Source: Deltaproteobacteria bacterium
GTDB lineage: Bacteria; Myxococcota; Kuafuiibacteriia; Kuafuiibacteriales; Kuafuiibacteriaceae
DNA length: 64,000 nucleotides
Assembly (NCBI GenBank): GCA_040218735.1
Contig: JAVJQW010000017.1
Span: 256,001-320,000 of the forward strand
Reading direction: 5' to 3'
Positions 28,938 through 63,547 of this stretch are shown here, in pieces; positions within the stretch are counted from its first letter, which is position 1, and each line of letters opens with the position of its first letter. The notes beneath the pieces are model-generated. The model saw only the letters and a program-made list of their open reading frames with translations. It ran no database searches and was not told where the DNA came from. Made by a program: the position numbers and the translations under genes.

Positions 28938-30440
<1,503 letters not shown>

Positions 30441-31379: not shown

Positions 31380-31406
31380 TGGCGCGGTCGACTCTACTCG
31401 ACTACC

Positions 31407-32126
31407 ATGGGTCGCGCATTGCCGAAGGTGATCAAGCGGGCCTCCCAGGCCCCCGAACCGAGCCGCCCGCAGGCGCCGCAGATGAAGAAGCGGCGCGTGA
31501 TCGAGCGCGAGCTCGTCGACGCGACCAAGGAGGCCACGCGCATCCGACGCGAGGCCGAGGACGCGGCCCAGCGCATCCTCGAAGAGGCCGAAGAGCAGGC
31601 CGTCGAGACGCGCCAGCACGGGTTCGAAGAGGGCAAACAAGAAGGCCTCGCGCAGTACACCCAGCAGGTCGCGCAAGCGCTCTTGCGGGTGAAGAAGGTC
31701 GAGGACGGCCTCGAGGCGAGCTACGTCGGGCTCGTGACGGAGTGCGTCGAGAAGATCATCGGTGAGGCCGTCAAGATCGACTCGAACGTCATCGTCGGGG
31801 TCGTGCGGCGCGCCCTGCTCGACGCGCGGCAGCAGCGCGAGATCATCGTGCGCGTGCACCCGACCGACAAAGCGGCGCTCGAGCAGAACAAGAACAAACT
31901 CCTGGAGATCCTCGCGCGTGCGAACGCCGTAGAGATCCGTGAGGACGCCTCGGTCACGCGCGGCGGCTGCATGATCATGACGGAGCTCGGTGCGATCGAC
32001 GCGCAGCTCGAGCGGCAGCTCGAAGCGATGCAAGCCGCCTTGCAGGCCGAGCTCACGGAAGCGGAGCTGTCCGGCTACGACATGGGCGAGCTGGATCCCG
32101 AGGACGACCCGGGGGCCGGTTACTAG
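31407..32126 (+). CDS. sctL: T3SS stator SctL (FliH family)
   Basis: HGFEEGKQEG GxxxG repeats, IIVRVHP.D, GGCMIMTELGAIDA; immediately upstream of the ATPase. Confidence 0.88.
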   Translation: MGRALPKVIKRASQAPEPSRPQAPQMKKRRVIERELVDATKEATRIRREAEDAAQRILEEAEEQAVETRQHGFEEGKQEGLAQYTQQVAQALLRVKKVEDGLEASYVGLVTECVEKIIGEAVKIDSNVIVGVVRRALLDARQQREIIVRVHPTDKAALEQNKNKLLEILARANAVEIREDASVTRGGCMIMTELGAIDAQLERQLEAMQAALQAELTEAELSGYDMGELDPEDDPGAGY

Positions 32127-33445
32127 TGGTCGCCGCCCCGATCGACTTCTCTCGATACGCGCGCCGGGTGCGCAAGACGCGCTTCACGCGCGTGCGCGGT
32201 CGCGTGACGGAGATGACCGGCCTGATCATCAAGGCCGCGGTCCCGGGCGTGCGCATCGGGGAGCTCGTGGAGATCGTCAACCCGACGCACAGCCTGCAAG
32301 CCGAGGTCGTCGGCTTCCGCGACAAGGAAGTGATGTTGATGCCCTTCGGGTTCCCGGAGGGCGTCGGTCCGGACTCGGAGGTCGTGCCCTACGGGCGGCC
32401 GTTCGAAGTGCGCTGCGGCGAGGGTCTGCTCGGTCACGTCGTCAACGGTCTGGGCCAGCCGATCGACGGCGCGAGCCTCAGCGAGATCCGCGGGCTCGAG
32501 GACTGGGCCGTGGAACGCACGCCGCCCGATCCGCTGGATCGTGAGCGCGTGCTGGAACACATCGCGTTCGGCGTGCGCGCGATCGACGGGCTGCTGACGA
32601 TCGGTAAAGGTCAGCGCGTCGGGCTGTTCGCGGGCTCCGGTGTCGGTAAGTCGACCTTGATGGGGCAGATCGCCCGAAACACCGAGGCCGAGATCGTCAT
32701 CTGCTGTCTGATCGGCGAGCGTGGTCGTGAGGTGAAGGACTTCATCGAGGAGTCGCTCGGTGAGGAGGGGATGAAGAAGTCGGTGGTGGTCGTGGCGACC
32801 TCCGACGAGTCCTCGCTCGTTCGTCAGAAGTCGGCGTTCGTCTCCACCGCGATCGCGGAGTGGTTCCGCGACCAGGGCGCGCGGGTGTTGTTGATGATGG
32901 ACTCGACGACGCGCTTCGCGCGTGCGCAGCGCGAGATCGGCTTGGCGGTCGGTGAGCCGCCGGCGCGCCAAGGTTATCCGCCGTCGGTGTTCTCGCAGCT
33001 GCCTCGGTTGTTGGAGCGCACGGGCAACTCGTCGAAGGGATCGATCACGGCGCTGTACACCGTCCTCGTCGCGGGCGGTGACATGGAAGAGCCGATCTCC
33101 GACGAGGTCCGCGGTATCCTCGACGGCCACATCATCCTCAACCGTGCGCTCGGCGCGCGGAACCACTGGCCGGCGATCGACATCCTGCCGTCCCTGTCGC
33201 GTGTCGCGACGGGCATCATCGCCCCCGAGCACCGCGAAGCGGCGGCGAAGCTCCGCGAGGTGCTCGCGACGTACGAGAAGCAGCGCGACCTCATCCTCCT
33301 CGGCGCGTACCAGTACGGCACGGACCCGGCGACCGACTACGCGATCGACAAGATCGACATGGTCGAGGCGTTCCTCCGGCAGCGCACCGAGGAGAACTCG
33401 CCGTTCGAAGAGTCGATCCAGATGCTGGTCGGCTTGTTCAACTGA
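32126..33445 (+). CDS. sctN: T3SS ATPase SctN (FliI family)
   Basis: GQRVGLFAGSGVGKS, IGERGREV, DSTTRFARA, GYPPSVF, LDGHIIL. Confidence 0.97.
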   Translation: MVAAPIDFSRYARRVRKTRFTRVRGRVTEMTGLIIKAAVPGVRIGELVEIVNPTHSLQAEVVGFRDKEVMLMPFGFPEGVGPDSEVVPYGRPFEVRCGEGLLGHVVNGLGQPIDGASLSEIRGLEDWAVERTPPDPLDRERVLEHIAFGVRAIDGLLTIGKGQRVGLFAGSGVGKSTLMGQIARNTEAEIVICCLIGERGREVKDFIEESLGEEGMKKSVVVVATSDESSLVRQKSAFVSTAIAEWFRDQGARVLLMMDSTTRFARAQREIGLAVGEPPARQGYPPSVFSQLPRLLERTGNSSKGSITALYTVLVAGGDMEEPISDEVRGILDGHIILNRALGARNHWPAIDILPSLSRVATGIIAPEHREAAAKLREVLATYEKQRDLILLGAYQYGTDPATDYAIDKIDMVEAFLRQRTEENSPFEESIQMLVGLFN

Positions 33446-33456: not shown

Positions 33457-33942
33457 TTGGCGAAGTACCGACTCCAGACCCTCCTCGAGATCCGCGAGCG
33501 CGCGGAGGAAGACGCCAAGCAGGCGTTCGCCGCCGCGATGGCGCAGCTCAAGCAGGAGCAAGATCTCTTGCAAGAGCTGAAGGACGAGCTCGAACGCATG
33601 ATCGAGGACCGTCACCGCCGCCGCGAGGAGTACGCGAACAAACTCGCGTCGGGGGAGATGAAGGTGACGGACCAGGCCGCCGCCTACCGCTTCATCGACC
33701 GCCTCAAGGAGAAGGAAGTCGAGCAGAAGGGGCGCATCGACGCGCAACGCGAGAACGTGCGCGAAGCCGAAAAGCACATGAAGCGCGCACAGGACGCGCT
33801 CATCCAGGCGACCCAGGACCTCAAGGCGCTGCAGAAGCACAAGGAGAACTGGGAGGCGCAGGTGAAAAAGGAACGCGCCATGCGCGAGGCCGAGCAGCTC
33901 GACGAGATCGCGCAGACGATCTACCAGCAGCGGAACAAGTAG
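33457..33942 (+). CDS. sctO: T3SS stalk SctO (FliJ family)
   Basis: KYRLQTLLEIRERAE..., coiled coil, EAEQLDE; directly after sctN; TTG start. Confidence 0.85.
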   Translation: MAKYRLQTLLEIRERAEEDAKQAFAAAMAQLKQEQDLLQELKDELERMIEDRHRRREEYANKLASGEMKVTDQAAAYRFIDRLKEKEVEQKGRIDAQRENVREAEKHMKRAQDALIQATQDLKALQKHKENWEAQVKKERAMREAEQLDEIAQTIYQQRNK

Positions 33943-34003: not shown

Positions 34004-34927
34004 TCAAGGGAGCTCGGAGACCACCACGCGGTAGTCCTGGCCGGCCGTCACGAGGTGGCCGCGGTGGAATGCGGCCGCCGTGACGTCGCGTCCACCGTGC
34101 ACCACGAAGGACGCGACGCGCTGACGCGCCTTCACGTCGATCACCGCGACCTCGCCGCCCGGCACGCCCACGGCGACACGCTGCGCATCGATGAACACCG
34201 GAGCGCTCCACGGGCGCTCGACCGTCCCCCGCGTCGCGTCGCGAACCACGACGTTGCCCTCCGGGGAGAGGTTCGTCTCGAAGGCGCCGTCGAAGCCGAA
34301 CACCGTGAGGTCGCGCGCGGTGAACGCCATGAGGTCACCGGTGGGCGAGGTGGCGATCGCGCTCATGCCGTCGGTGGGTTCCGCGATCTTCGGGCCTTCG
34401 ACACGGACGAGGTGATCACCTTCCAGCGCCGCGTACGCCACGTGGGAGCCGCCCTGGCGGACCGCCGCGCAGACCAGGCGGGTGCCGTCGAAGGCGAGCG
34501 AGACGTTGCGCTCGCCGCCGAAGCTCTCGAGCGCGACGGTCTCGTCGCCGAAGAGCCAGAGGATCTCTGCGTCCCCGACCGCCGCGACGCGGTCGCCGAC
34601 GAAAGTCACCGCCTGCACCTCGTGGCCGGCGGGTTTGGCGATGATCCGGACGCGCTCGCCGGCTTCGACATCCCACACCTCGATGTCCCCCGCGCCCACG
34701 ACGACCGCGCGGCGACCGTCGAACGCGCAGTCGTGCACGATGTCGAGATCACACTCGAGGCGGTGACGAAGCGTGAAGTCGTCGCCCCACACGAAGAGCG
34801 TCCCGTTGGAGTCGGCGCCGACGAGCGTCGTGCCGTCCTCGGAGAAACGGAGCGCGACGATGTGCTCGACGTCGTCTTCGATGACCCGACCCACGTTGGA
34901 CGTGACCTTAGCAGCTACGAAATTCAT
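34004..34927 (-). CDS. WD40-like beta-propeller protein, candidate immunity protein
   Basis: ALRFSEDGTTLVGADSNGTLFVW, GDIEVWDV and AIATSPTGDLMA repeats; starts 10 bp after the toxin stop; no signal peptide. Confidence 0.7.
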   Translation of the reverse strand: MNFVAAKVTSNVGRVIEDDVEHIVALRFSEDGTTLVGADSNGTLFVWGDDFTLRHRLECDLDIVHDCAFDGRRAVVVGAGDIEVWDVEAGERVRIIAKPAGHEVQAVTFVGDRVAAVGDAEILWLFGDETVALESFGGERNVSLAFDGTRLVCAAVRQGGSHVAYAALEGDHLVRVEGPKIAEPTDGMSAIATSPTGDLMAFTARDLTVFGFDGAFETNLSPEGNVVVRDATRGTVERPWSAPVFIDAQRVAVGVPGGEVAVIDVKARQRVASFVVHGGRDVTAAAFHRGHLVTAGQDYRVVVSELP

Positions 34928-34937: not shown

Positions 34938-37900
34938 TCACTGGTGGAAGACTTCGATCTGGACGTTCGGATAGTCCGTCCGGAACTTCGACATCACGCG
35001 CTGACACGACGGGCACGGCGGCAGCTCCGTGAAGATCCGCAGCCGCGCGTCGGCGCCCTTCGGCAGCTTCGACAGCGCATCGTTCACCAACCCCATCAAC
35101 CGCACCTCGGAGTCGTTCATGCGCGACATCTTGTGCTGCCCGGGCACGTCCTCCAGCACCCGCGCCTCCGCCTCGTACGGGTTCCCGGGCACCCCTTCAT
35201 CGGGACCGCCACCGCTCCGACGCGGACCGATCGGCTGCCGCACACCGTCGACCTCCAGCTCCGCGTACGCCCGGTTCGGCTTCTCACCGTCCGGGAGCTT
35301 CAGCTTCTTCACCTCCTCGACGGGGTTGCGGTCGAAGGCGCCAGGACGTGCGTCCGAGATCGGCGATACCTCGATGCCGGCGGTCTTGCGGATCGACTCG
35401 TACATCGCCTGCTGCGACGCCTTGTACTCGTCCATGAACGCCTGACGCGTCGCCTTCTCGTTGGCCTCCCACGTCTCCTTCGCGCGCTGCGCCTGCGCGA
35501 GCTCCTCGTCGGAGAGCCGGCCCGGCGGGCGCTTGGGTTTGTCACCCATCGTCCCGTACTCGGTCGCGAGGCGGCGGCTCTTCTCACTCGCGCTGAGGAA
35601 CTCACGCGCGGCGGATGCGTTGGCGTCCGTCGGGTTCTGCTCGACGAGTTTCTTTGCGAGGCGGACGTCCTCCGCCATGCCCTCGACGCGCTTGCGCTGA
35701 CTGGCCGCCTGTTTGCCGGTGTGTGGCCACTGATCGAGCGCCCGGTCGAGATCCTTCCCGGCGACGTCGAGCTGTTTCAGGATGTCGTCGGCGAAGGTCG
35801 ACGGCTTGAGCTTCGCGCGCTCCGGAGCGTCGAGCTTCTTGGGCGCCGGTCCGTCGACGTCCGCCTTCGCCTTACCGCGCCACAGGCGCCCCAGCCCGTT
35901 CGTCGCGCCCTGCGACAGCGGGTTGAGGATCGCGCCGAACGCAGCGCCGCGGAGCCCGTTCATGTTCGCTTCGCTGAGACTCTTGCCGTCGAGCAGCGAG
36001 TTGGAGGTCCCGACGATGTAACCATCGACAGCGCCCTCGCCGATCGTCGTGCCGCCCCAGATGCCGGCGCGTGTGAGCATCGAGACGCTCTGCCCGGTTG
36101 CCAGCTTCGTCGCCTGGTTCGCGAGCATCCGCTGCGCGGCCTGACGCGCGAGCATGTTCGTGCCGGTCGCCGACAGCCCGTTGATCCCACCCTTGAGCAG
36201 ATCGAGGGCGACGTTCCCATCGTACTCGCCGCTCCCGGTCCATGCGTCGAGGCCCTTCGTCCCGACCTTCGTGATCGCACCCGCCGCCGCGCCGACGAGC
36301 AGCGACGCACCACCGGTGAACGGCGCCGCCGCGGCCGCGGTGAGCGCGACGCCCACGGATGCGAAGTCCGAGATTCCTTCCACCCAGTTGCTCTGCGACT
36401 TCTGGAAGCGCTGGATGTGATCCGGGACCGCCTGAATCTTGTCGTTCAGGTTCGTGACGCGGTCGCGGTACGCCTTCACGAAGTCTTCGTGCGAGCCCTT
36501 GAAGTTCGCGAGGTTCTCGACGTCGCGACGCGCGCGGTACGCGTCGTGAATCGTTCGCACGACCGCGTTGCTCCCGAGCTCGGAGTCGATCAGCCACCCA
36601 TCCTTGCTGCCGAGGTTGTTCTTGATCGCATCGGCGAGGTCACCGACGACCCCCTGCTCGCGCAGGATGCGGTCGAACGTACGGTCGAGCCGGTCGACCT
36701 CCTTGCCCACGTTCTCGACGAGGCTCTTCCGCAGCTTCCCCTCGAGCTGCTCCACGGAGAACCGCGTGTAGTCCTCGCTGACCTGCGCGTGCTGTGCGTC
36801 GGACAGGTCGTCCATCGACTTCTTGAGGTAGGGGATCGGGTTGTTCGGCTCGGCGCGCGCGGCCTTCATCCGCTCCGCGATGTCCGAGTCCTCGAGCCCC
36901 GCGGCGCGCATCTCACGCTCGTCGCGGTAGTACAGCTCGGAGGTCGGCGCGGGAGACTTCACCTCTGGCGCCGTCCAGGTCGGCGCCGCCTTCCGCTCGC
37001 CGAACAGCCCGGAGTCGAGTGAGAAGTCGTGTTTCTTGCTCGGGTGGCAGTCGTAGCACTTCTCGCCGGTCATGAGGCGCGACAGCTGCGCCGGGTCGAG
37101 CTGCGGACGCTGAGCTGCTTCGTGCTGCTGTACCCGCTCGCGGAATCCTTCGAACGAGTTGGGATCGCGATCGAACAGCTCTCCGTTGTCGCGTTTGTAG
37201 CCGTCGATCTCCGACAGCGCGCGGAAGCGGTCGTAGCTACTGACCTTGGAGATGTCCTTGCCGGCGACGTCGGCGAGGAACGCTTCGCGGTCGACGCCGT
37301 AGAACGGGCTGTCGTCGCCCCAACCGTTCTTCGTGTACTCACTGTCGAGGCGCGCGTGGTGCGGACGAATCTTCTTGTCGAGCTCCTTCAGGCGGAAGTT
37401 CGCGACGTGATCGTCGTAGACCTGCCGTTGCTCGGCGGTCATCTGCTCCGGCTGGATCTTCAGGCGCTGCCGCGGGTCGCCGTTCGACAGCTCGAGCCGG
37501 AAGCGCAGCGCGCTCTCGTCCTGGTAGCGCTTCGCGAGCTGGTCATACTGCTCGGTGCCCTTCCGCACGCTGGGGTGATCGGTGCGGATCTTGTTGTCGA
37601 TCGCGGTGTCGAGGCGTTCGCGAGCGCCGGCGTGGATGTCGCGGAGGGTGTTGGCCTGCGTGAAAGGCGACGACAGCGAGAACGGCTCGGTCTTCTTGTC
37701 GGGGTGGCAGTCGTAGCACTTCTCGGTGTTGGCGAAGATGTTCCGGCGATCGATCCGGTCGAGCCGGTCGTCCGGCTCGACCGCGGTGTCCTTCGACGCC
37801 CACTTCGCCGGGTCGAAGAGCCGCGCCTGCTCTTCGCGTGAGTAGAACAGGTCGTCGTGCCCGGGCTGCACGCCGGTGACCGGGTCGTAGGTGTTCGCGT

Positions 37901-38981
37901 CCGCCGGGCGATGCGCACGGATCGTCGACAGCGCCGCCTTCGAGTCGCGGTGGGAGAGGTCGGAGACCGGCGTCTGCTCGAGCTGCGAGATGAACTGCTG
38001 CGTCCCCTCGGACATCGGGCGCCGCACGAGGTCGTGGGCGAGCTGCTGCATGCGCTCGCGCGACTCGGGCGCGAGCTCCTTCGCGCGCGAGGCCTCCTGC
38101 AGGCGGTTCGACTCGCGCAGCCGGAAGTCACGCTCGTACTTACGCGCCTGCGGCATCTCGTCGGCGGCGAGGCGATCGGAGTAGCGCTGCGCCTCTTCGG
38201 CGCGCTCCACGGGGCTCATGCCCTGGACGGTCGATTCGAAGCCACGGTCGAGCTCGGCCCGGACCGCGTCGTGGTTCACCGGCTTCGGGCCGACGCGTTC
38301 CGTAGGCCGGAACTTCGCGAGCGCCGAGAAGTCGAGCGGGGTGAAGTCCTCCTTCTTGTCCGGGTGGCAGTCGCGGCAGTCGACGCTGTTCCGCAGCGGA
38401 TCCCGGAACGGGTTCTTGGTGAGGGACTGAAGGGCGTCGGTCGGCTGCGGCTTCTCCTTCGTCTTCGCGAGGTAGTCCTCGAGGCTGCGGATCTGTCGAT
38501 CCATCGTGTCCTTGAACTCGGCGTCGTTGTTGCGGCGGTGGCGGTCGTGGAGCTGTTGGTAGGTCGGGAGTGCATCACTCGGCGTGGTGTCGCTCCGCGT
38601 CTTCTCCTCCTCGGCCGGCGCCCGGGTTTGGACGGGCCGCCCCTCGGCGAGGTGTGTCTCGGTTCGGCGGAGCTCCGTCGCTTCGTCCGTGACCTGACGT
38701 TCCGGTTGCTCGCGAACCTTCGGCCGCTCTGCGCCGGTGGTGTGATCCTGTTTCGCGACGCGTTGGTCCGCATCGTTGGCGGGCGGCTGGTAGTCGTCGC
38801 CCTTCGCCTCCGGCGTGCCCTTCGCGCCTCCCGCGCCGCCCTGCCCCGCTTTGTCGCCCGACTGCGGCGGTGGCGGTGGTTTGGTCTGCTCCTCTTGTTT
38901 CTTCTTCTCGATGCGCTGGAGCGCGAGCGCGATCCGGTCTTCTGCGGTCCCACCGAGGGGAAGTGCATTCACGGGCGGCAT
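34938..38981 (-). CDS. Polymorphic toxin-like protein: three CxDCH motifs, glycine-zipper TM region, C-terminal deaminase (BURPS668_1122/Toxin-deaminase-like)
   Basis: RMNDSEVR (DSE 35106-35114) ... RIFTELPPCPSC (35004-35018) ... FRTDYPNVQIEV; AAAPFTGGASLLVGAAAG; CxxCH at 38364, 37704 and 37044; ATG 38981 chosen because the longer ORF overlaps sctP antisense. Confidence 0.85.
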   Translation of the reverse strand: MPPVNALPLGGTAEDRIALALQRIEKKKQEEQTKPPPPPQSGDKAGQGGAGGAKGTPEAKGDDYQPPANDADQRVAKQDHTTGAERPKVREQPERQVTDEATELRRTETHLAEGRPVQTRAPAEEEKTRSDTTPSDALPTYQQLHDRHRRNNDAEFKDTMDRQIRSLEDYLAKTKEKPQPTDALQSLTKNPFRDPLRNSVDCRDCHPDKKEDFTPLDFSALAKFRPTERVGPKPVNHDAVRAELDRGFESTVQGMSPVERAEEAQRYSDRLAADEMPQARKYERDFRLRESNRLQEASRAKELAPESRERMQQLAHDLVRRPMSEGTQQFISQLEQTPVSDLSHRDSKAALSTIRAHRPADANTYDPVTGVQPGHDDLFYSREEQARLFDPAKWASKDTAVEPDDRLDRIDRRNIFANTEKCYDCHPDKKTEPFSLSSPFTQANTLRDIHAGARERLDTAIDNKIRTDHPSVRKGTEQYDQLAKRYQDESALRFRLELSNGDPRQRLKIQPEQMTAEQRQVYDDHVANFRLKELDKKIRPHHARLDSEYTKNGWGDDSPFYGVDREAFLADVAGKDISKVSSYDRFRALSEIDGYKRDNGELFDRDPNSFEGFRERVQQHEAAQRPQLDPAQLSRLMTGEKCYDCHPSKKHDFSLDSGLFGERKAAPTWTAPEVKSPAPTSELYYRDEREMRAAGLEDSDIAERMKAARAEPNNPIPYLKKSMDDLSDAQHAQVSEDYTRFSVEQLEGKLRKSLVENVGKEVDRLDRTFDRILREQGVVGDLADAIKNNLGSKDGWLIDSELGSNAVVRTIHDAYRARRDVENLANFKGSHEDFVKAYRDRVTNLNDKIQAVPDHIQRFQKSQSNWVEGISDFASVGVALTAAAAAPFTGGASLLVGAAAGAITKVGTKGLDAWTGSGEYDGNVALDLLKGGINGLSATGTNMLARQAAQRMLANQATKLATGQSVSMLTRAGIWGGTTIGEGAVDGYIVGTSNSLLDGKSLSEANMNGLRGAAFGAILNPLSQGATNGLGRLWRGKAKADVDGPAPKKLDAPERAKLKPSTFADDILKQLDVAGKDLDRALDQWPHTGKQAASQRKRVEGMAEDVRLAKKLVEQNPTDANASAAREFLSASEKSRRLATEYGTMGDKPKRPPGRLSDEELAQAQRAKETWEANEKATRQAFMDEYKASQQAMYESIRKTAGIEVSPISDARPGAFDRNPVEEVKKLKLPDGEKPNRAYAELEVDGVRQPIGPRRSGGGPDEGVPGNPYEAEARVLEDVPGQHKMSRMNDSEVRLMGLVNDALSKLPKGADARLRIFTELPPCPSCQRVMSKFRTDYPNVQIEVFHQ

Positions 38982-39257
38982 GTCGCGCAAGATGAGTTGC
39001 AATGCCCGGCCCGCCGCCCAAGCTCGCGAACTTCGGTGTGTCGGCGGCGGACCTGTAGCGCGCGCCCCTCGGACCTGCGGCGTCGGCGCCCGTGGGGCGA
39101 CGTGGGCAGATGAAGGCCTTGGTTGGACCCGCACCGACGTCCCCAACGGAAAATGCTCGTGAAACCGGGGTCTTGGACCGTTCGTCCAGCGCGCCGAGAT
39201 TCGGAAGCAACGAAGCACAACGAACGATCGATAATCCCCATCAAAGGGAGCCGTTGC

Positions 39258-40139
39258 ATGAGCCGCGTCGACGACAACAGCGACAACCGCCGCATCCGCG
39301 AGATGAACGAGGCGGCGCACAACAAGAAGATCCGCAACGAGAAGAAGAGCGCCGAGGCCCGGGGCGAGCAGACGTTCCGCGAGGTCATGCAGAAGAAGGC
39401 GCGCACCGAGACCGCGCAGCGGAACCAGGCCAAGGAGACGGAGAAGGAGAAGGGGGCCGAGGGTGAGTCGGTGCTCGACCGCATCCGCAAGCGCGCTCCG
39501 AAGAAGAGCGTCGAGCGCGACCGCCGGCAGGCGCTGCAGCGCTCGATGCAAGGTGGCTTGCTCAAGAAGAAGGCGCTCAAGGCCGGCGAGGACGCCCGCG
39601 CCGAAGCCGCCCGCGGCGAGGAGCTGAAGACCGGCGCAGACAACGAGCTCGAGCGCGTCGAAAAGGAAGTGCGCAAGGAAGACGAGCACGAGACGGTGCG
39701 CAGCGACGAGAAGCAGGCCGAGGTCATGCAGGAGGCCCGCGCCGACGTCCCGACCGAACGCGCCGACCCCGACGGTCGCCGCCAGCAGCGCCAGAGCCAA
39801 GGCAAGTCAGGCGACGGGAGGGACAACAACGCGCAGGCCATCCAGAACGCGCGCCGCGCGGGCCGCCCGGCGATCCCGCAAGAGGTCCTGCAGCGTCTGG
39901 TCTCCGCGATCTACAAGGCGGTCAACGCCGACGGGCGCACCAGCATGCGCATCACCCTCAAGGGCGGAAAGCTCGAGGGCGTCACGGTCGACATCAAGTC
40001 CGAGGGCGGCAAGGTGAGTTGTGAGTTCGGCAACTGCCCGAAGGAGCTGAAGTCGATGCTGAAGAAGGGCACCTCGCAGCTGGCGAAGGGCCTGTCGCGG
40101 CGAGGGTTGAAGCTCGAGCGACTCAGCGTCCGCGACTAA
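39258..40139 (+). CDS. sctP: SctP/FliK-like ruler / substrate-switch protein
   Basis: Charged low-complexity N-terminus; C-terminal FliK_C-like MRITLKGGKLEGVTVDIKSEGGKVSCEF...LAKGLSRRGLKLERLSV; GGGAG RBS; position between sctO and sctQ. Confidence 0.7.
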   Translation: MSRVDDNSDNRRIREMNEAAHNKKIRNEKKSAEARGEQTFREVMQKKARTETAQRNQAKETEKEKGAEGESVLDRIRKRAPKKSVERDRRQALQRSMQGGLLKKKALKAGEDARAEAARGEELKTGADNELERVEKEVRKEDEHETVRSDEKQAEVMQEARADVPTERADPDGRRQQRQSQGKSGDGRDNNAQAIQNARRAGRPAIPQEVLQRLVSAIYKAVNADGRTSMRITLKGGKLEGVTVDIKSEGGKVSCEFGNCPKELKSMLKKGTSQLAKGLSRRGLKLERLSVRD

Positions 40140-41212: not shown

Positions 41213-42499
41213 CTAACGCGCCGTCACGAGCATGTTCGCGACGCACATCTCGTCGCCGGTGCCTTCACCCCAATTCACGTCGACCGGCTCCTGTCCGCGG
41301 TCCTGGTTCGCCGCCGAGTTGTCGAAGGTGCAGTTCAACATCAGCGCGTCGCCGTCCAGGACTTCGAGCGGCTCCGACAACACGTACTGGCGCTGCCAGT
41401 TGAAGTCCCAGTTCTGAATGTTGAGGAAGTTCGTCTCGAACCCGCGCCGCACGCGCGACACACGTCCGACCTCGCCGAGCTGGTGCATGTGGAACATCAC
41501 CGCGTGCACCTCGAACCCATCGTCGAACGGGAGCGTCTCGCCCGCGACGAGATCGAAGAAGCCCCGCGGGTCCTCCTCGATCTCGTGCTCGACCGCAGAC
41601 TCACCCGCGGGGATCTGCATGAAACCGAGCGGCCACGACACGTCGAGGAACGGCGCGTACCAACCTTCGCGCTCCACCGAGTCCTCGAGCGAGAAGACCA
41701 ACCGACTCTGGTCCGGCGCCGGGTCGTCGCCGACCACGTTGTAGTGCATCTGGATCACCACGGTGGACCCCGGCTTCACGCGGATGCCGATGCCGTTCGG
41801 GTACACGTTGCCGCTCTGCCCCGGCAGCCACGCGCCCAGCTGCACGATCGGGATCGCTTCGCGCCCGCCCGACGGTCCGCCGAAGCACTCGTAACCCGGG
41901 CGCTCGTCTTCCTCGTTCCAGACGAACGGCTTCTCCGCATTCTCCGGCGGCAGGATGAACACGCCGACGTGGTGCACGATCTCCAAGTTCCCCGGCATCA
42001 CCGACAGCGCCGTCACGAACTTGTCCGCGGTCTCCGTCCACCGCACCGGGAAACAACGGTAGTCGTCGGGCCGCCCCGTCGGGACGTACGGTTCGGGGAG
42101 CTGCAGCTCCAGGTCGACGCCCGGGAACGCGGGCTCGGTCGGCGGGAGCGCGTCTCCCGGCGACGACGCGTCACCCATCTCCATCCCTTGATCGACCCAG
42201 TCGACGATCGTCTGGATCTGCGCGTCGGTGAGCGAGACGTCTCCGTCGTAGGTCACGTCGGACGGACCGGCCGACCACGGCGGCATCTGACGCGACGTCA
42301 CCGCCATCGCCACCGCGGGACCGAACGCCTTCACCTTCTCGAAGTCGTCGAGCCCGAACGGCGCGATCGCCCCCTCGGCGTGGCAGCTCGTGCAACGCCC
42401 CTCGACGATCGGGCGGACATCCCGGTAGTACGTCGGTGCCCCCTCGGAGCACGCGACGAGCGCGAGGGCGGCCACCGGGACCAACGATGAACGGGACAC
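41213..42499 (-). CDS. Copper type II (PHM/DBM-like) monooxygenase lipoprotein with N-terminal c-heme motif
   Basis: LVAC lipobox; CTSCH and MPPW; VHHV, QMHY, FHMH, WDFNWQ, DEMC copper ligands. Confidence 0.85.
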   Translation of the reverse strand: MSRSSLVPVAALALVACSEGAPTYYRDVRPIVEGRCTSCHAEGAIAPFGLDDFEKVKAFGPAVAMAVTSRQMPPWSAGPSDVTYDGDVSLTDAQIQTIVDWVDQGMEMGDASSPGDALPPTEPAFPGVDLELQLPEPYVPTGRPDDYRCFPVRWTETADKFVTALSVMPGNLEIVHHVGVFILPPENAEKPFVWNEEDERPGYECFGGPSGGREAIPIVQLGAWLPGQSGNVYPNGIGIRVKPGSTVVIQMHYNVVGDDPAPDQSRLVFSLEDSVEREGWYAPFLDVSWPLGFMQIPAGESAVEHEIEEDPRGFFDLVAGETLPFDDGFEVHAVMFHMHQLGEVGRVSRVRRGFETNFLNIQNWDFNWQRQYVLSEPLEVLDGDALMLNCTFDNSAANQDRGQEPVDVNWGEGTGDEMCVANMLVTAR

Positions 42500-42549
42500 G
42501 GGCGGGAGCTTGCCGGGGCTGGCAAGACCTGAACACCGGTCGACGATCG

Positions 42550-43059
42550 GTGCTCCCGATCCTGCTGACCCTCGCCGCGTGCTCCGGAAACTCCGCGCCC
42601 CCCGAGCCCGTCGCGCTGATCGATCACGCCGCCTGGGTGACGGGGCGCGTCGAGGTCGATCCACAAGGCCTGCACGCGCCGGATCCGATCACCTGCGCGG
42701 CCGGCACCTACCACGTGGACGGGCTCCCGCCGTTCGAGACCTTCGAGGTCACTACGGGCGACTGCAACTTCCTCACGGCCTCCCAACGGACGCTCGCCCC
42801 CGTCGAAGCCGGCGACGCGCTCCGCCTGATCGTCTGGCACCTCGACCTCGACGCGACGCTCCCCGGCCCCGCGCACGCCGCAATCTCGATCGACGGCGAC
42901 ATCCTCTGGGAGCTGAACGTCGACGTCCCGTCGGACGCGGCGCTCTACGATGTCCGAATCGACGCTCCACGTGCGTTCACCCGGGACGCCGACATCGTCT
43001 TCCACGTGCACAACCACGGCACGAACGAGTGGAACATCCAGACCGTCGAGCGGCGCTGA
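42550..43059 (+). CDS. Hypothetical lipoprotein with His motif
   Basis: LAAC lipobox; WHLDL; FHVHNHG.N.W; divergent from the monooxygenase. Confidence 0.65.
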   Translation: MLPILLTLAACSGNSAPPEPVALIDHAAWVTGRVEVDPQGLHAPDPITCAAGTYHVDGLPPFETFEVTTGDCNFLTASQRTLAPVEAGDALRLIVWHLDLDATLPGPAHAAISIDGDILWELNVDVPSDAALYDVRIDAPRAFTRDADIVFHVHNHGTNEWNIQTVERR

Positions 43060-47299: not shown

Positions 47300-48940
47300 T
47301 TGAACGCACGTCCACCACCTCCGCCGCCGGCGTCGATGGTCGATGTGTCGGCCTACACCCGGCAGTCGCGCACCTACGAGCCCAACGACCCGGAGATCCG
47401 CGGCAAGAAGGTCCGGCGGTTTCGGCTCGACGAGCTCGAGCGGTTCCCGCGCGAGGTGCGCGACATCCACCGCGCGCTGTTTCGGATCATGCCGGAGCTG
47501 GTCTTTGCGGACGACTTCGTCCCGAAGGTCCGCAAGGTGCTCCAGCAGTACACCGAGATGGACATCGACCTGTGGATGCACTCGATGCGGGTCGTCGGGC
47601 GCACCAAGCTCCGGTCCCTGATACCGGGCGCCTCGTTCATCGCGATCGTCGGGCTGCCGCCGCTGCACGAGAAGGTGCTCGTCGAGATCGATCTGAGGTT
47701 CTGCTACCGCGTCGTCGACGCCCTCCTCGGCGGGCGGGGCGTCACGGTCGACATCCACCGGCCGCTGACGGAGATCGAGCACGGCGTCTTCTCCTACCTC
47801 CTCCTCAAGGTGCTCCAGCTCTTCTACGGCGACCTCGCCAACCCCGAGCAGATGGGGGTGCGGCTCGAGGACATGCGCAACGACCTCAAGAGCTGCGCCG
47901 ACATCGTCCGGCACGACGACTTCTGGCTCGTCGCGTCGTGGAAGATGAACTTCGACCTCGACGTCGGCTACGTCCGCGCGCTGATGCCCACTTCGCTCGC
48001 GCGTAAGATCGTCGACGAGCACCCGCCGCCCGGCTCGGCGCTGCAACAGCGCATGCACGACCGCATCCGGCAGCGCATGTACCGCCTCGCCGGCGTGACG
48101 GTGGAGGCGCCGGTGGAGATCGGGCGCATCGAGCTGTCACCCGACGACGTCGAGCAGCTCGATCCGGGCGACATCATCCTCCTCGAGAACTGCAGCGTGC
48201 AGCTGTCCGAGGAGGGGGTGTACGGGACGGCGGTGATGACCGTCGGGCTCGGTGACAACGGCGTCATCCACGGCAACGTCGGAGCGGGCGGGCACTACGG
48301 CAACCTCGTCTTCGAGGTGACGCAGCTCGAGATGCGTCCGCAACCCAAAGAGCACGACCCCCAAATCATTCACGGAGAGCACGGGAACCCAGAAGAGGTC
48401 ATGGCCGAATACGAAGCACCGCCCCCCGGTGAAGAGGGGTACGAAGAGGACTACTACGACGAAGCCGACGACGGCTCGACGACGCCGGACGACGTGCTCG
48501 ACGAGGACTGGGGCATCGACGACGAGGACCACGGCGAGGACGAAGAGTACGGCGACTACGAAGAGGGCTACGAGGAAGGGTACGAAGAGGGCTACGCCGA
48601 AGAGGGGTACGAAGAAGGCTACGCCGAAGACGGCCAGCAGCAGGAGTACTACGACGAGGCGAACGCCGAGGACGTGCCGATCGACGACTCCGACAACCTC
48701 ATGGAGGCGGAGCCGCTCCTCGGGGACATGCCGATTCACGTCGTCGTGGAGCTCGGACGCGTTCAGCTGACGGCAGACGAGGTCATTCGCCTCCGCGCCG
48801 GTCAGCTGATGGAGCTCGGACGCTCGCCCGCGGATCCCGTAGACTTGGTCGTGAACGGCAAGCTCCTCGCGAAGGGTGAGCTCGTCGAGATCGAGGGCGC
48901 GCTGGGCGTGAAGATCCTCAACCTCGTGAAGGAGACGTGA
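47300..48940 (+). CDS. sctQ: T3SS sorting-platform SctQ (FliM/FliN SpoA domains)
   Basis: FliM-like middle (RPLTEIE); two SpoA domains (VEIGRIELS..LDPGDIILL; VELGRVQLT..LRAGQLMEL..VDLVVNGKLLAKGELV); alternative start 47336. Confidence 0.88.
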   Translation: MNARPPPPPPASMVDVSAYTRQSRTYEPNDPEIRGKKVRRFRLDELERFPREVRDIHRALFRIMPELVFADDFVPKVRKVLQQYTEMDIDLWMHSMRVVGRTKLRSLIPGASFIAIVGLPPLHEKVLVEIDLRFCYRVVDALLGGRGVTVDIHRPLTEIEHGVFSYLLLKVLQLFYGDLANPEQMGVRLEDMRNDLKSCADIVRHDDFWLVASWKMNFDLDVGYVRALMPTSLARKIVDEHPPPGSALQQRMHDRIRQRMYRLAGVTVEAPVEIGRIELSPDDVEQLDPGDIILLENCSVQLSEEGVYGTAVMTVGLGDNGVIHGNVGAGGHYGNLVFEVTQLEMRPQPKEHDPQIIHGEHGNPEEVMAEYEAPPPGEEGYEEDYYDEADDGSTTPDDVLDEDWGIDDEDHGEDEEYGDYEEGYEEGYEEGYAEEGYEEGYAEDGQQQEYYDEANAEDVPIDDSDNLMEAEPLLGDMPIHVVVELGRVQLTADEVIRLRAGQLMELGRSPADPVDLVVNGKLLAKGELVEIEGALGVKILNLVKET

Positions 48941-49521
48941 TGAAGACGCGCGCTGCTCTGCTCTGCCTGTCGCTGTCGCTGGTGTGGACCGCACCGGTGT
49001 TCGCTCAGGCCGACGGAACAGCGAACGGGACGGCGCCGTCCACCGTCGCGGCCGAGGTGCCCGACGCGGCCGGGGACCCGTCGATGGATCCGGAGTTCGC
49101 CGCCGCGCTCGCGGAGGCGGAGAGCGCCGACGTCGAGAAGACCAGCACCGCGGACGCGACCGAAATGTTCGGCGCATTGGTCCAGATGGTGTTGGTCCTG
49201 GCGGTGGTGTGCGCCCTCGCCTATCTGTTGCTCGGCAAGGTGTTGCCGAAGCTCATGCGCGTGCAGACGCCGACGGCGCCGCACCGCATGTTGGAGGTCG
49301 TGGATCGGCTGCCGCTCGATCCGCGCCGTTCGATCATGGTCATCAAGCTCGGCGAGCGCTTCTTCCTGGTAGGCGCGACCGAGCAAGGCATCAATCTCCT
49401 CTCACGCCTGGAGACGGAAGAGGTGGAGGACGCGCTGGCCTCGGCGGCCGCCCGGCGCGACTCGACATCCCTCTCCCGCTTCGCGGGCAACCTTCTTTCA
49501 CGTACGAGGAAGGAGTCCTGA
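48937..49521 (+). CDS. fliO: FliO-family export-gate chaperone
   Basis: Signal peptide, one TM, LEVVDRLPLDPRRSIMVIKLGERFFLVGATEQGINLLS. Confidence 0.85.
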   Translation: MMKTRAALLCLSLSLVWTAPVFAQADGTANGTAPSTVAAEVPDAAGDPSMDPEFAAALAEAESADVEKTSTADATEMFGALVQMVLVLAVVCALAYLLLGKVLPKLMRVQTPTAPHRMLEVVDRLPLDPRRSIMVIKLGERFFLVGATEQGINLLSRLETEEVEDALASAAARRDSTSLSRFAGNLLSRTRKES

Positions 49522-49522
49522 C

Positions 49523-50491
49523 GTGTTCATGAAAGCTGTGACCTCGGTGTTCGGGGAGCGGAAGAAGTCGCGCCGCGAACGCCGGCTCGCGCTGCGGAAC
49601 GAGACCCCGCGGCGGCGTTGGCGTCGACCTCGCGTCGAACCGCCGCGACCGCGACGGGGGATGCGCAACCCGCAACGCTCCGCGGCGAAGACCGCGCTGT
49701 TGTTGACCGCGGCGATCTCCGCTGGGGCGATCACCGCGACGGCGTTCTCTTCGGACGCCGAAGCTCAGCAGCGTCGGCGCCGCCGGGTGAAGACCTCGGA
49801 CCTGACGCTGAAGGGTTCGGTGATCGCGCGTCCGCTGGTGCTCATCGGAGCGCTCGCGGTCCTCACGCTGCTGCCGTTCGTGATCATCATGATCACGAGC
49901 TTCGTGAAGATCTCGGTGGTGCTGTCGATCGTACGCTCGGCGATCGGTACGCAGCAGATCCCTCCGACTCAAGTCATCACGGGCCTGGCGATCATCCTGA
50001 CGGTGTACATCATGGCGCCGGTCGGCCTGGAGATTTATCGAGAATCGGAGAACCTCATCAACGAACGAAGACCGGGTTCATCGCTGGCATCTGCCGAGAC
50101 GGTCGACCTGGTGTTCGAGGCGATGCTCCAGGCGAAGGAGCCGGTGAAGGCGTTCCTGATGAAGAACAGCCACGTGAAGGATCGCGTGATGTTCTACCGG
50201 ATGGCGGTGCGGCTCCGTAAGCCGGAGGACCAGAAGGGCGTGGGGCCGGAGGACTTCATGGTCATCGTCCCCTCCTTCGTCATCTCGGAATTGAAAGAAG
50301 CCTTCCAGATCGGCTTCATCATATTCGTGCCGTTCTTGGTGATCGACATGATCGTCGCCAACATCCTCATGGCGCTCGGCATGCAGATGTTGTCACCGAC
50401 GACGATCTCACTGCCATTCAAGTTACTCCTCTTCGTGATGATCGACGGTTGGTACCTCATCACGAAGGGGCTCATCACGGGGTACATCTGA
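49523..50491 (+). CDS. sctR: T3SS export gate SctR (FliP family)
   Basis: TSFVKISVVLS, GTQQIPP, SELKEAFQIGF, LPFKLLLFV.IDGW; alternative ATG 49661 gives a Sec signal ending AEA-Q. Confidence 0.95.
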   Translation: MFMKAVTSVFGERKKSRRERRLALRNETPRRRWRRPRVEPPRPRRGMRNPQRSAAKTALLLTAAISAGAITATAFSSDAEAQQRRRRRVKTSDLTLKGSVIARPLVLIGALAVLTLLPFVIIMITSFVKISVVLSIVRSAIGTQQIPPTQVITGLAIILTVYIMAPVGLEIYRESENLINERRPGSSLASAETVDLVFEAMLQAKEPVKAFLMKNSHVKDRVMFYRMAVRLRKPEDQKGVGPEDFMVIVPSFVISELKEAFQIGFIIFVPFLVIDMIVANILMALGMQMLSPTTISLPFKLLLFVMIDGWYLITKGLITGYI

Positions 50492-50763
50492 TGGTCGAAG
50501 ACTTCATCATCCAGATCGCCAACGCCGGGATCTTGTTGACCCTGGTGATCTCCGGGCCGCCGGTGCTGTTCTCGCTGCTCGTCGGTCTGATCATCGCGCT
50601 GTTCCAGGCGGTGACGCAGGTGCAGGAGCAGTCGCTGACGTTCGTGCCGAAGGTCATCGTGGTGTTCGGGACGCTCGCGGTGATGGGCCAGACCCTCGGG
50701 AGCTCGATGGCGCAGTTCGGGCGCATGTGCTTCGAGGGGTTCGCCACCGTCATCGGCAACTGA
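50491..50763 (+). CDS. sctS: T3SS export gate SctS (FliQ family)
   Basis: VGLIIALFQAVTQVQEQSLTFVPK; TGATG coupling to sctR. Confidence 0.95.
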   Translation: MVEDFIIQIANAGILLTLVISGPPVLFSLLVGLIIALFQAVTQVQEQSLTFVPKVIVVFGTLAVMGQTLGSSMAQFGRMCFEGFATVIGN

Positions 50764-50765
50764 CC

Positions 50766-51251
50766 GTGCCCGTCGCTCGTCCTCTGATGGCCGCCGTGGT
50801 GAGCGCGACGATCGCGCTCGCGGCGCCGTCGTCCGCCTCGGCGCAGGTGGAGGGGGACGGGGTGATCGTGACGACGGCGGTGCTCGGGACCATCGCCGGG
50901 ATCACCAACGCCATCGCGGTCACGGTGTACGCGGTCGAGGGCCGTGCGCTCGGGAGCGGGTGGGTGGTGAGCACGCTGTTCTCCACGGCGATCTGCGGAG
51001 CGCTCACAACTTCGTTCATCGTCGCCGCGGCGCAGAACGACGGCGTGGGTTACTCGATCGGGACGCTGTTCTACGCCCTACTCACCGTGTGGCCCGGGTA
51101 CTACGTCATCCGCTCGTCCTTGAGCGAAGCCGAGCCGGGTGAGTACTTCGACGCGGAGGTCGCGCCCGACGACACCGAGGACCCGATCTCCTCGCTCACC
51201 CCCGCGCCGCGACGCTTGCCGACGGCGTTGGCTTGGGGCTTCGAGTTCTGA
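50766..51251 (+). CDS. Hypothetical membrane protein inserted between sctS and sctT
   Basis: Signal peptide (ASA-Q), 3 hydrophobic segments; its stop overlaps the sctT ATG. Confidence 0.6.
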   Translation: MPVARPLMAAVVSATIALAAPSSASAQVEGDGVIVTTAVLGTIAGITNAIAVTVYAVEGRALGSGWVVSTLFSTAICGALTTSFIVAAAQNDGVGYSIGTLFYALLTVWPGYYVIRSSLSEAEPGEYFDAEVAPDDTEDPISSLTPAPRRLPTALAWGFEF

Positions 51252-52075
51252 TGGGTGCGTTCGGCCAGCTCTCCGACCTGATCGGTCTGCGCGGTCCGCT
51301 CTCCGACACGCTGTTGATGGGCGTGCTGGTGTTGATGCGCATCGTCCCCATCATCTTCCAGACGCCGTTCCTCGGCGGAAAGCTCGTCCCGCCCGAGACC
51401 CGCATCGGTCTGTCGGTCGGGCTCGCGGTCCTCGTCTTCCCGTTCGCCAAGTCCGGGATGGACGGACCGCTCGACGTCAACTGGCTCGCGTTCCTGATCC
51501 TGCTGTTGAAGGAGCTCTTCTTGGGCTTCGTGATCGGCTTCGTCGCGACGGAGCTCTTCCTCGCGATGGAGATCGCAGGCCGCGGCCTCGACGTTTTGCG
51601 TGGCTCGAACATGGCCGAGGTGCAGGTCCCCGAGCTGCAGCTTCGTGTGTCCCCGATCGGTCAGTTCAACTTCCAGCTCCTGCTCGTGGTGTTCTGCGGG
51701 CTCAACGGGCACGGCCACTTCATCGAGAGCGTGATCAAGAGCTACGAGATGGTGTCGATCGACAAGTGGCCGGGCTTTTCGGCGGCCGGCTTCCAGACCT
51801 TCGTCGACGGCATCCTCATGTACACGGGCGACCTGTTCGCGGTCGCCTTCGGGCTGGTGTTCCCGGGCATGTTCGCCGCGTTCCTCGTCGACGTCGTGTT
51901 CGGCATGTTCAACCGCATCGCGCCGCAGCTGAACGCCTACTTCATGGCGATGGGTGTGAAGGCGCTCTCCGGCCTCATCATGTTCATGTTCGCGATGTCG
52001 CTGATGGTCGCGCAGATGGGACACCGCCTCGAGGAGTCGCTGCTGTTCATCCGCCGCATCGTGGCGTTCTTCTGA
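51251..52075 (+). CDS. sctT: T3SS export gate SctT (FliR family)
   Basis: PFLGGKLVP...RIG, KELFLG..IG, AG..LD..RG, NRIAPQLNAYF. Confidence 0.93.
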   Translation: MGAFGQLSDLIGLRGPLSDTLLMGVLVLMRIVPIIFQTPFLGGKLVPPETRIGLSVGLAVLVFPFAKSGMDGPLDVNWLAFLILLLKELFLGFVIGFVATELFLAMEIAGRGLDVLRGSNMAEVQVPELQLRVSPIGQFNFQLLLVVFCGLNGHGHFIESVIKSYEMVSIDKWPGFSAAGFQTFVDGILMYTGDLFAVAFGLVFPGMFAAFLVDVVFGMFNRIAPQLNAYFMAMGVKALSGLIMFMFAMSLMVAQMGHRLEESLLFIRRIVAFF

Positions 52076-62338: not shown

Positions 62339-63547
62339 GTGTCGGGGGATACCGGCGAAAAAACCGAGGAGGCCACTCCAGAAAAACTTCGTAAGGCGAA
62401 GGAGGAGGGGCAGGTTCCGAAGAGTCAGGACCTCGTCGGCGCGCTCGGGTTCGCGACCGGGTTCTTCACGCTCGTCGGGCTGATCGGTTTTGTCTTCGGG
62501 GAGATCGAAGACTTCGCGCGGGCGTGCCTCGACGCCGCGGTCAACAACCCGTCCGAGGCGACGATCACCAAGCTCCTCGAGGACGCCATCCCGATGTTCC
62601 TCAAGGTCACGCTGCCCATCGGGGCGGCGGTGTTCGTGATGGGGGTGTTCTCGAACGTCGTTCAGACCGGGTTCTTCATGGCCTTCAAGGTCCTGATCCC
62701 GAAGATCGACAAGATCAACCCGATCAACGGGTTGAAGGGCCTGTTCAAGGTCAAGAAGTTCGTCGAGCTCATCAAGAACATGGTGAAGATGGGCGCCGCG
62801 GCCTGGATCGCCTGGAGCGTGATGGAGGACGCGCTCTACGACATGACGCTGGTCGTCACGATGCGATTCGAGCAGGCGGTGGACTATGGAAGTGGCCTGC
62901 TCTGGGAGTATCTTGTGAAGACGACTGCGCTGTTCGTGGCGATCGGCGTGGTGGACCTCATTTGGTCCCGGCGTGTCTTCAACAAAGAGCAGATGATGTC
63001 CAAGTACGACGTGAAGCAGGAGTACAAACAGAGCGAAGGCGATCCCCAGATGAAGGGGCAGCGCCGGCAGCTCGCGCACGAGCTGTTGTTCTCCGGCGGC
63101 GCGCAGAACGTGAAGAACGCGGACGCGGTCGTCGTGAACCCGGTGCACATCGCGGTCGCGATCAAGTACGACACGGACAACGACAAGGCGCCGAAGGTCG
63201 TGGCGAAGGGGATGCGCGTCCACGCCGAGAAGATCAAAGAGCTCGCGAAGCACTACGGCGTGCCGATCCTCAGGAACGTCCCGCTCGCGCAGGCGCTCAA
63301 CAAACTCGACATCGACGAGGAGGTCCCGGAGGAGCTGTACGAAGCGGTCGCCGAGGTCCTCGCGTTCGTCTACAAGATCAAGGAAGAGCAGGAGAACCGG
63401 CAGGCCGGCCAGGCGGACGATCGCGCCGCCGAGCAGAAGGCCCGCATGGCGCAGATGGGCGCGCACGCTTCGGCGCCCTCGACAGATCCGCCTCCCCGCG
63501 GGCAAGGTGGTGGCGGTAAAGGAAACCTGCTGAAGCGCAGAGGCTGA
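62339..63547 (+). CDS. sctU: T3SS switch protein SctU (FlhB family)
   Basis: EKTEEATPEKL..A.EEGQVPKS, INPING, MSKYDVKQEYKQSEGDP, NPVH, VAKG, NVPLAQAL. Confidence 0.96.
   Translation: MSGDTGEKTEEATPEKLRKAKEEGQVPKSQDLVGALGFATGFFTLVGLIGFVFGEIEDFARACLDAAVNNPSEATITKLLEDAIPMFLKVTLPIGAAVFVMGVFSNVVQTGFFMAFKVLIPKIDKINPINGLKGLFKVKKFVELIKNMVKMGAAAWIAWSVMEDALYDMTLVVTMRFEQAVDYGSGLLWEYLVKTTALFVAIGVVDLIWSRRVFNKEQMMSKYDVKQEYKQSEGDPQMKGQRRQLAHELLFSGGAQNVKNADAVVVNPVHIAVAIKYDTDNDKAPKVVAKGMRVHAEKIKELAKHYGVPILRNVPLAQALNKLDIDEEVPEELYEAVAEVLAFVYKIKEEQENRQAGQADDRAAEQKARMAQMGAHASAPSTDPPPRGQGGGGKGNLLKRRG

Follow-up and report, generated by a model that had tools for sequence, protein, structure and literature searches.

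We describe a repeat with CxxCHP motifs in the delivery part of a polymorphic toxin, encoded in a 64-kb stretch of DNA from an uncultured member of the Myxococcota (contig JAVJQW010000017.1, positions 256,001 to 320,000; hereafter the window). The toxin gene lies on the minus strand among genes of a type III secretion system, and its 1347-aa product is numbered P0002 in our protein set. Three times along the protein, a linker with one CxxCHP motif precedes an all-helical module. Judged from the sequence, the motifs look like haem or metal sites and may hold a cofactor. Of the readings we weighed, attachment of c-type haem to the CxxCH sites after type III export to the periplasm ranks first, with a probability of roughly 35%. 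Here we infer the identity of the cofactor, the periplasmic step and the role of the haem.

A preliminary description of the window had placed three CxDCHPxKK motifs at an exact spacing of 660 and 660 bp, and our positions are identical to those it gave. CxxCH occurs at 38364-38378, 37704-37718 and 37044-37058 on the minus strand, corresponding to residues 202, 422 and 642 of the 1347-aa protein (475, 695 and 915 of a longer, 1620-aa open reading frame); the three sequences are CRDCHP, CYDCHP and CYDCHP. The number of CxxCH expected by chance in a protein of this composition is 0.0009. Among 200000 shuffled sequences, 163 contained one CxxCH and none contained more than one. All six cysteines of residues 1-1040 belong to the three motifs. 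At the DNA level the motif regions form a 49-nt family of three copies, 71-73% identical, at the same 660/660 spacing. A candidate fourth copy at 38517-38565 (61% identical, 174 bp upstream of motif 1, encoding LHDRHRR) is off period and probably a chance resemblance, and was rejected.

The longest open reading frame at the locus (34938-39800, 1620 aa) is an artefact of high GC content. Its 273 extra codons at 38982-39800 overlap a divergent sctP-like gene (39123-40139) and could mislead a gene caller. Because of this overlap, and because four close homologues (P0003-P0006) begin with the same MPPVNA as the product of the ATG at 38981, the true product is the protein of 1347 aa. The gene and its parts are as follows.

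34938..38981, minus: toxin gene, 1347 codons and stop, with the start ATG at 38981; the coding part of P0002 is 34941-38981
38427..38981, minus: N-terminal region, residues 1-185, rich in Pro, Gly and charged residues, without a hydrophobic signal segment
38328..38426, minus: linker 1, residues 186-218, with CRDCHP at 38361-38378; predicted local distance difference test (pLDDT) score below 50 at model residues 57-89
37785..38297, minus: helical module 1, residues 229-399, with AlphaFold2 blocks of pLDDT 92-98; relation to the other repeats by profile comparison
37659..37760, minus: linker 2, residues 408-441, with CYDCHP at 37701-37718
37065..37637, minus: helical module 2, residues 449-639, from AlphaFold2 and the repeat relation by profile
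36987..37061, minus: linker 3, residues 641-665, with CYDCHP at 37041-37058
36390..36947, minus: helical module 3, residues 679-864, which opens the widely conserved carrier domain
35877..36389, minus: Gly/Ala-rich hydrophobic segment, residues 865-1035, of low pLDDT; no other part is as widely conserved in the family
35142..35876, minus: spacer after the carrier, residues 1036-1280, where divergence among homologues starts
34944..35141, minus: C-terminal deaminase toxin domain, residues 1281-1346, matching PF14424

Linker and module repeats

Comparison of single units by BLASTP recovers their relation weakly. Units 1 and 2 align over 81 aa (E 8e-5) and units 2 and 3 over 138 aa (E 1.7e-6), while the alignment of units 1 and 3 covers the motif only. 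With family alignments as profiles, the units align significantly in hhalign: units 1 and 2 with a probability of 96.9% (E 1.9e-10, 167 columns), units 2 and 3 with 98.5% (E 2e-15, 120 columns) and units 1 and 3 with 89% (E 2.3e-6, 50 columns). In control comparisons of each unit with the next 190 residues, the probability did not exceed 0.2%. Since the profile-profile comparison is clear and the controls are negative, the 220-aa units are, on these alignments, true old duplications (∼20-30% identical) and not a recent DNA repeat. The alignments of the repeat region are shallow, comprising 10 proteins.

These results agree with the preliminary description in the repeat itself and depart from it in several details. 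Of the degenerate blocks it listed as shared between units, FISQL..PVSDLS and FLADV..DISKVS are aligned exactly by hhalign, but the pairs AQRYSD/AKRYQD and DFRLRE/NFRLKE are shifted by 4-7 residues. The exact 220-aa period holds only in the window protein and in a 96% identical relative. It appears to be incidental, because the spacing of motifs in other relatives ranges from 199 to 225 aa (221/223, 219/225, 217/222, 218, 217 and 199 aa). The repeat consensus consists of a linker of ∼35 residues with the pattern [LFM]-x-x-[GTS]-x-x-C-x-x-C-H-P-[DSN]-K/R-rich...F-x-L and, behind it, a module of ∼180 residues that is helical throughout.

We modelled residues 130-1045 with AlphaFold2 from an alignment of 34 sequences. 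The model has a mean pLDDT of 74 and a predicted template modelling score (pTM) of 0.68, with 465 residues at or above a pLDDT of 90. Its confident parts are three all-helical modules at residues ∼229-399, 449-639 and 679-864. All three motifs fall in segments with pLDDT below 50 (model residues 57-89, 279-312 and 512-536). In a separate model of unit 2, the first 38 residues, including the motif, again have pLDDT below 50 and are followed by nine helices. Both models therefore place the motifs in flexible linkers ahead of the helical modules, and not inside a folded unit. Within the modelled portion of the N-terminal region (residue 130 onward), a confident helix is predicted at residues ∼141-176. 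Just ahead of it, LPT (residues 138-140; window 38562-38570) is invariant in all eight aligned relatives, in otherwise poorly conserved N-terminal surroundings.

The repeat had been described as new, and the searches bear this out: no match to Pfam, NCBIfam, PDB sequences or known folds covers a unit. A fold search of the PDB with the 916-residue and unit-2 models returned no match at E ≤0.001, with best template modelling scores below 0.2. The profile of family alignment A1 gave only one, chance-level match (E 0.33) among PDB sequences, and the repeat region gave no usable match in the ESM Atlas.

Relatives and conservation of the motif

A word-indexed search found seven relatives. An exhaustive phmmer search with residues 130-1045 found 108 at E ≤0.001 among 1.84 billion cluster representatives, most of which match only residues ∼680-1040, the helical and Gly-rich part. 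By sequence comparison, residues 679-1035 (window 35877-36947) are a widely spread, unnamed carrier domain with 108 cluster representatives. The motif has a much narrower distribution. Among the 112 proteins of both searches, CxxCHP is confined to 10 (P0002-P0010 and the fragment P0051). A linker-motif profile run against the 112 proteins, a search that the preliminary description had suggested, recovers exactly the 23 known copies at 31-62 bits and scores everything else at or below 0 bits, so that the motif belongs to this rare subfamily only. The number of motifs per subfamily protein varies from one to three.

Within the subfamily the core of the motif is conserved, as had been anticipated. 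The two cysteines, the histidine and the proline are invariant in all 20 non-redundant copies (23/23 when all copies are counted), while the flanks are variable. Asp follows the first variable position in 15 of the 20 copies. The residue after His-Pro is Asp in 15/20 and Ser or Asn in 4/20. The pair of lysines in the originally proposed CxDCHPxKK is, by contrast with the core, only common (Lys in 10/20 and 11/20). Hydrophobic flanks also recur, with Leu, Phe or Met at position -6 and Phe or Leu at +11 to +20.

Individual motifs differ in their persistence. The residues of motif 2 (C422, C425, H426 and P427) are invariant in 8/8 aligned relatives. Motif 3 is kept in five of the eight; P0007-P0009 lack it through a deletion of ∼60 residues. 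The motif has decayed in two lineages, at site 1 in P0009 and at both sites in P0011, and each time His and Pro have disappeared along with the second Cys. Among the more distant relatives P0011-P0039, 14 of 29 contain no cysteine at all, among them 11 with lengths of 817-1935 aa. Against so many cysteine-free relatives of the carrier, the six motif cysteines of the window protein are conspicuous.

Several further observations concern the distant relatives. A lone CTTCHS is present in P0035 and P0115, and its relation to the motif is uncertain. The single AANPKCTTCHSEP lies at residue 476 of P0035 and residue 488 of P0115, ∼190 residues upstream of a unit-2-like module; its bearer is a distant relative, 27% identical in the carrier, and the sequence may be a remote motif copy or a coincidence. 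In many relatives of low GC content the carrier domain lies close to the N-terminus and precedes ADP-ribosyltransferase or PRTase-CE domains. One relative, P0012, comes from a metagenome-assembled genome (MAG) of Armatimonadota. The named records in the clusters of P0009, P0012 and P0035 (3 of 10 relatives) are all annotated as 'hypothetical protein'.

Readings of the CxxCHP sites

In known c-type haem sites, the axial ligand is invariably the His adjacent to the second Cys. Zinc knuckles usually carry Gly at this position, and a His-Pro there would be ill-placed to bind the same zinc ion. The toxin motif shares with c-type haem sites an exact CxxCH in which all three residues are invariant, and the joint loss of the second Cys, His and Pro is what would be expected if all three acted on one cofactor. 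The only signal from the family libraries at the motifs is a weak, sub-threshold resemblance of the window protein to Haem_bd (PF14376), with 21.4 bits (E 2.6e-4) against a cutoff of 27, and 16.4 bits on the 76-aa segment of motif 2. According to the accessible text of PMC8112865, purified bacterial CcsBA attaches haem to CXXCH peptides down to 9 residues, and requires both thiols and the His and no flanking helix. These requirements fit motifs located in low-confidence linkers, since bacterial synthases accept an unstructured stretch (PMC8112865, in the same text). Sites of c-type cytochromes are matured by System I (Ccm) or System II (CcsBA). Haem is ranked first because of the invariant Cys, Cys and His, the joint loss on decay, the unstructured linkers and the sub-threshold Haem_bd signal taken together.

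Attachment of haem c takes place in the periplasm, and the preliminary description had raised the objection that no signal peptide is visible. The observation stands. The first 45 residues of the toxin contain no hydrophobic segment (maximum 10-residue hydropathy 0.88, on a crude scale that is not a signal-peptide predictor). Across the family, the same crude scan found only 2 of 86 proteins of at least 600 aa to be strongly hydrophobic in their first 45 residues, one of them a fragment that begins inside the Gly-rich segment. The objection to haem is weakened all the same, because the type III cluster would offer an exit route that is independent of a signal peptide.

Such a route has a possible model in Myxococcus xanthus. 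Its type III-like system is described, in the accessible text of PMC10433427 and PMC12075869, as having neither secretin nor needle nor translocon, with effectors unknown. The available portions of these papers and of PMC12428579 suggest that a Tad-like pilus may pass on the substrates of this system in type II fashion. With such a hand-over to the pilus, the substrates would meet the periplasm. The window resembles the needle-less myxobacterial system (T3SS*) in its Myxococcota sct genes, in showing no secretin or needle gene, and in that the effectors of T3SS* are, in the accessible text of PMC10433427, unknown. It differs in coming from an uncultured relative, in a length from which the absence of needle and secretin is not judgeable, and in that secretion of the toxin is suggested by linkage only.

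If the sites do carry haem, the unfolded toxin chain would pass the type III export gate out of the cytoplasm and, in a system without needle, secretin and translocon, would emerge in the periplasm. There the cell's own cytochrome c synthase, for which two thiols and the His of an unstructured CXXCH suffice, would add one haem to each linker. Packed by the flanking Leu and Phe, the haems might rigidify the joints between modules and could act as His-ligated, microperoxidase-like centres on the carrier during hand-over to prey. The Gly-rich segment would then take the deaminase across the target membrane. The full course, in which a toxin without a signal peptide receives haem c in the periplasm by way of a needle-less type III gate and then passes to prey, strikes us as unlikely.

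Several points weigh against haem. Unlike c-type cytochromes, the window protein carries a toxin and is encoded among type III secretion genes; it has no Sec signal and no cytochrome-like fold, and holds one site per 220 residues. All cytochrome families score below their cutoffs (Cytochrome_C7 20.7 against 24.8, NCBIfam decahaem 11.5 against 192, others weaker). No His or Met that could serve as a sixth ligand stands at an equivalent position in all units; the only candidate is H525 in unit 2, present in 7/8 aligned relatives. The motif is missing from ∼100 relatives of the carrier domain and is therefore not needed for delivery as such. The low AlphaFold confidence of the linkers, as modelled, fits other readings equally well. 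The type III linkage, drawn from gene neighbourhoods, rests on two related loci only; neither a secretin nor a needle gene was seen within the 64-kb window, which is too short to prove their absence, and discharge of the substrates of the needle-less system into the periplasm is a supposition. To our knowledge, neither polymorphic toxins nor substrates of type III systems have been described with haem c. Our literature search likewise found no work joining a polymorphic toxin with CXXCH, or CXXCH with a type III secretion effector.

The closest alternative, possible if doubtful, is a metal clasp. CxxC(H) would supply two or three ligands to zinc (or copper or iron), and the site would be completed by a second motif of the same or another chain, as in a zinc hook. 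Held by the clasp, the helical modules would stay locked together, or the toxin dimeric, in the cytoplasm of the producer; the secretion ATPase would then remove the metal and unfold the chain. This would suit a cytoplasmically made protein that lacks a signal peptide. Zinc is most commonly bound by CxxC pairs, and the deaminase of this protein already contains a predicted PCxxC zinc site; the conserved copper-monooxygenase-like neighbour is a weak hint of metal biology. The variable motif number of one to three is tolerable for an intermolecular clasp, but with an odd number (three or one) each chain would be left with an unpaired motif. The units show no conserved fourth ligand, an invariant His and Pro right after the second Cys are atypical for zinc knuckles, and AlphaFold neither orders the motifs nor brings them together, though the alignment is shallow. 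The Rad50 zinc hook and the ZAS-type HxxxCxxC motif offer an analogy: in both, a short CxxC motif that is not embedded in a compact domain serves to link chains or to sense redox state. The toxin motif differs from both in the His that directly follows the second Cys, in the Pro after it, and in lacking a coiled-coil apex or an anti-sigma fold; the likeness implies no sequence relation.

A role as a short linear docking site instead of a cofactor site is improbable. The partner might be a chaperone, the sorting platform, a protein of the pilus tip or a protease that processes the toxin. The motif is conserved within segments predicted to be disordered, keeps its hydrophobic flanks and occurs once per module, all of which would suit docking. 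Such motifs, however, rarely need two Cys and a His in an otherwise cysteine-free protein, and no partner was identified in the window.

Quite improbable, too, is a redox switch, in which the CxxC would be reduced in the producer and form a disulfide in an oxidising compartment, the periplasm of the producer or of the prey. The disulfide would alter the conformation of the linker or shield the chain from proteases, with the adjacent His tuning the pKa of the thiol. CxxC is a classic dithiol/disulfide motif, the linkers are exposed, and the motifs hold the only cysteines of the carrier in a presumably secreted protein. A switch of this kind does not explain why His and Pro are invariant in 20/20 copies and are lost jointly with the second Cys, and there is no thioredoxin-like fold around the motif.

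Mimicry of a J-domain, with C-H-P-D-K-K standing for the Y-H-P-D-K-N loop that engages Hsp70, is very improbable and was rejected: the five-residue resemblance and the Asp after His-Pro in 15/20 copies favour it, but no DnaJ match appears at E up to 10 with 76-aa segments or up to 1 with the whole protein, Ser or Asn replaces Asp in 4/20 copies, and the region is predicted to be unstructured, with no context of helices II and III.

Toxin domain, secretion genes and significance

The C-terminal residues 1281-1346 match PF14424 (BURPS668_1122 deaminase) with E 2.2e-13 and 51 bits against a cutoff of 29.6. This is the sole family above its cutoff in the protein, and the matched profile positions (80-144 of 146) all lie in the second half of the profile. 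The zinc-binding catalytic motifs of deaminases are [HC]xE ... PCxxC. The toxin has PCPSC, and the Asp of its DSE aligns to the zinc-binding His of the HxE of APOBEC3G (NDSE is at residues 1289-1292, window 35106-35117). DSE is found in all four deaminase-bearing sequences of alignment A1.

The alignment of relatives diverges after residue ∼1040. Five of the 36 relatives scanned have a recognised C-terminal domain: an APH-like domain in P0007, an EEP nuclease in P0036, an ADP-ribosyltransferase in P0055 and PRTase-CE in P0040 and P0065. None was recognised in the other 31. Because the front ∼1040 residues are kept while the C-termini differ, the protein is, by sequence, a polymorphic toxin with a shared carrier and a swappable C-terminus. 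The motifs thus fall in the part that serves delivery, ahead of a toxin C-terminus that differs from relative to relative, in line with the delivery scaffold suggested in the preliminary description. No Pfam or NCBIfam family, including any trafficking domain, matches residues 1-1280. The Gly/Ala-rich segment probably inserts into a membrane.

Directly downstream of the toxin lies one further gene.

34004..34927, minus: WD40-like beta-propeller gene, starting 11 bp past the toxin stop codon

By position only, the WD40-like gene is a candidate immunity gene. A complex prediction for the deaminase domain with the WD40-like protein scored 0.04 against a mark of 0.34, and weighs neither way.

The toxin shares with other PF14424 polymorphic toxins a conserved N-terminal delivery part, a swappable C-terminal toxin and a small gene directly downstream. 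It differs from them in a delivery part that matches no described trafficking or pre-toxin domain, in its linkage to type III secretion instead of types V, VI or VII, in a downstream gene that encodes a WD40-like propeller (immunity being a candidate role by position), and in the DSE that replaces the usual HxE. A Gly-rich segment just ahead of the variable toxin also recalls the pre-toxin domain PT-TG (PF14449), for which the ESM Atlas gave one language-model lead (0.87). We rejected this assignment, as residues 860-1045 have no Pfam match at E up to 10. The comparison with PT-TG touches the Gly-rich segment and not the CxxCHP repeat.

The type III secretion genes of the window are the following.

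31401-32126, 32126-33445 and 33457-33942, plus: sctL, sctN and sctO, convergent with the toxin operon
39123..40139, plus: FliK/SctP-like gene, divergent from the toxin; PF02120 with E 7e-8 in the window
47300..52075, plus: sctQ, a FliO-like gene, sctR, sctS and sctT
62339-63547: sctU

The toxin and WD40-like pair is inserted, on the opposite strand, between sctO and the sctP-like gene. In Yersinia the order of these genes is sctN-O-P-Q-R-S-T-U, and by comparison the toxin pair falls between O and P. Four unrelated genes separate the sctP-like gene from sctQ, encoding a lipoprotein, a copper-monooxygenase-like protein, a protein of ∼1160 aa with ASH/Ig-like repeats and a short-chain dehydrogenase. 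The gap from sctT to sctU contains ∼10 kb of other genes. The copper type II monooxygenase-like gene (PHM/DBH-like; 41213-42664, minus) encodes a lipoprotein-type signal and an N-terminal CTSCH of its own, and a similar gene lies near the toxin in a second locus, L001, at 2-1183.

This locus came from a scan of GTDB species genomes that gave 52 pattern matches and one confirmed locus, L001, on a truncated MAG contig of 8.4 kb. Its toxin is 68% identical to that of the window and has the same divergent sctP-like neighbour (PF02120, E 6e-8) and the nearby copper-monooxygenase-like gene. The type III linkage could be checked in one relative only, because the scan yielded this single locus. The nearest named relatives of SctN, 80-86% identical, are from MAGs labelled Myxococcales, Myxococcota or Deltaproteobacteria. 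One SctN homologue, P0177, is encoded on a contig of 1,015,612 bp, equal in length to the contig of family member P0009; both may thus belong to one genome, which says nothing of adjacency. A gene for a sigma-54 enhancer-binding protein (28938-30440, minus) flanks the cluster. A sigma-54-like site upstream of the toxin, at 38998-39013, was considered and rejected: it has three mismatches, and with 46 sites of this type against an expected 77 the window shows no enrichment.

Polymorphic toxins with a PF14424 deaminase are of a known kind. The carrier, the 220-aa repeat of linker and module, the CxxCHP sites and the placement in a Myxococcota type III cluster have no match in the libraries, structures and literature searched. 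Whatever the cofactor, the analysis defines, from alignments and predicted models, a new repeat module without a known fold and a widely spread, unnamed carrier domain.

In the accessible text of PMC10433427, PMC12075869 and PMC12428579, the effectors of the needle-less type III system of myxobacteria are unknown and the exit of its substrates is unclear. A toxin family encoded in such a cluster is a concrete candidate for an effector of this system. The CxxCHP sites could serve as a built-in chemical reporter: haem on the protein, if true, would mean that it had been exposed to the periplasm and would inform on the route of secretion. The toxin would then be the first polymorphic toxin, and the first type III substrate, to be modified with haem c, and a candidate for the missing effectors of T3SS*. 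It would also provide indirect proof that T3SS* discharges into the periplasm, and the exposed haems could act in a microperoxidase-like manner on the envelope of the prey.

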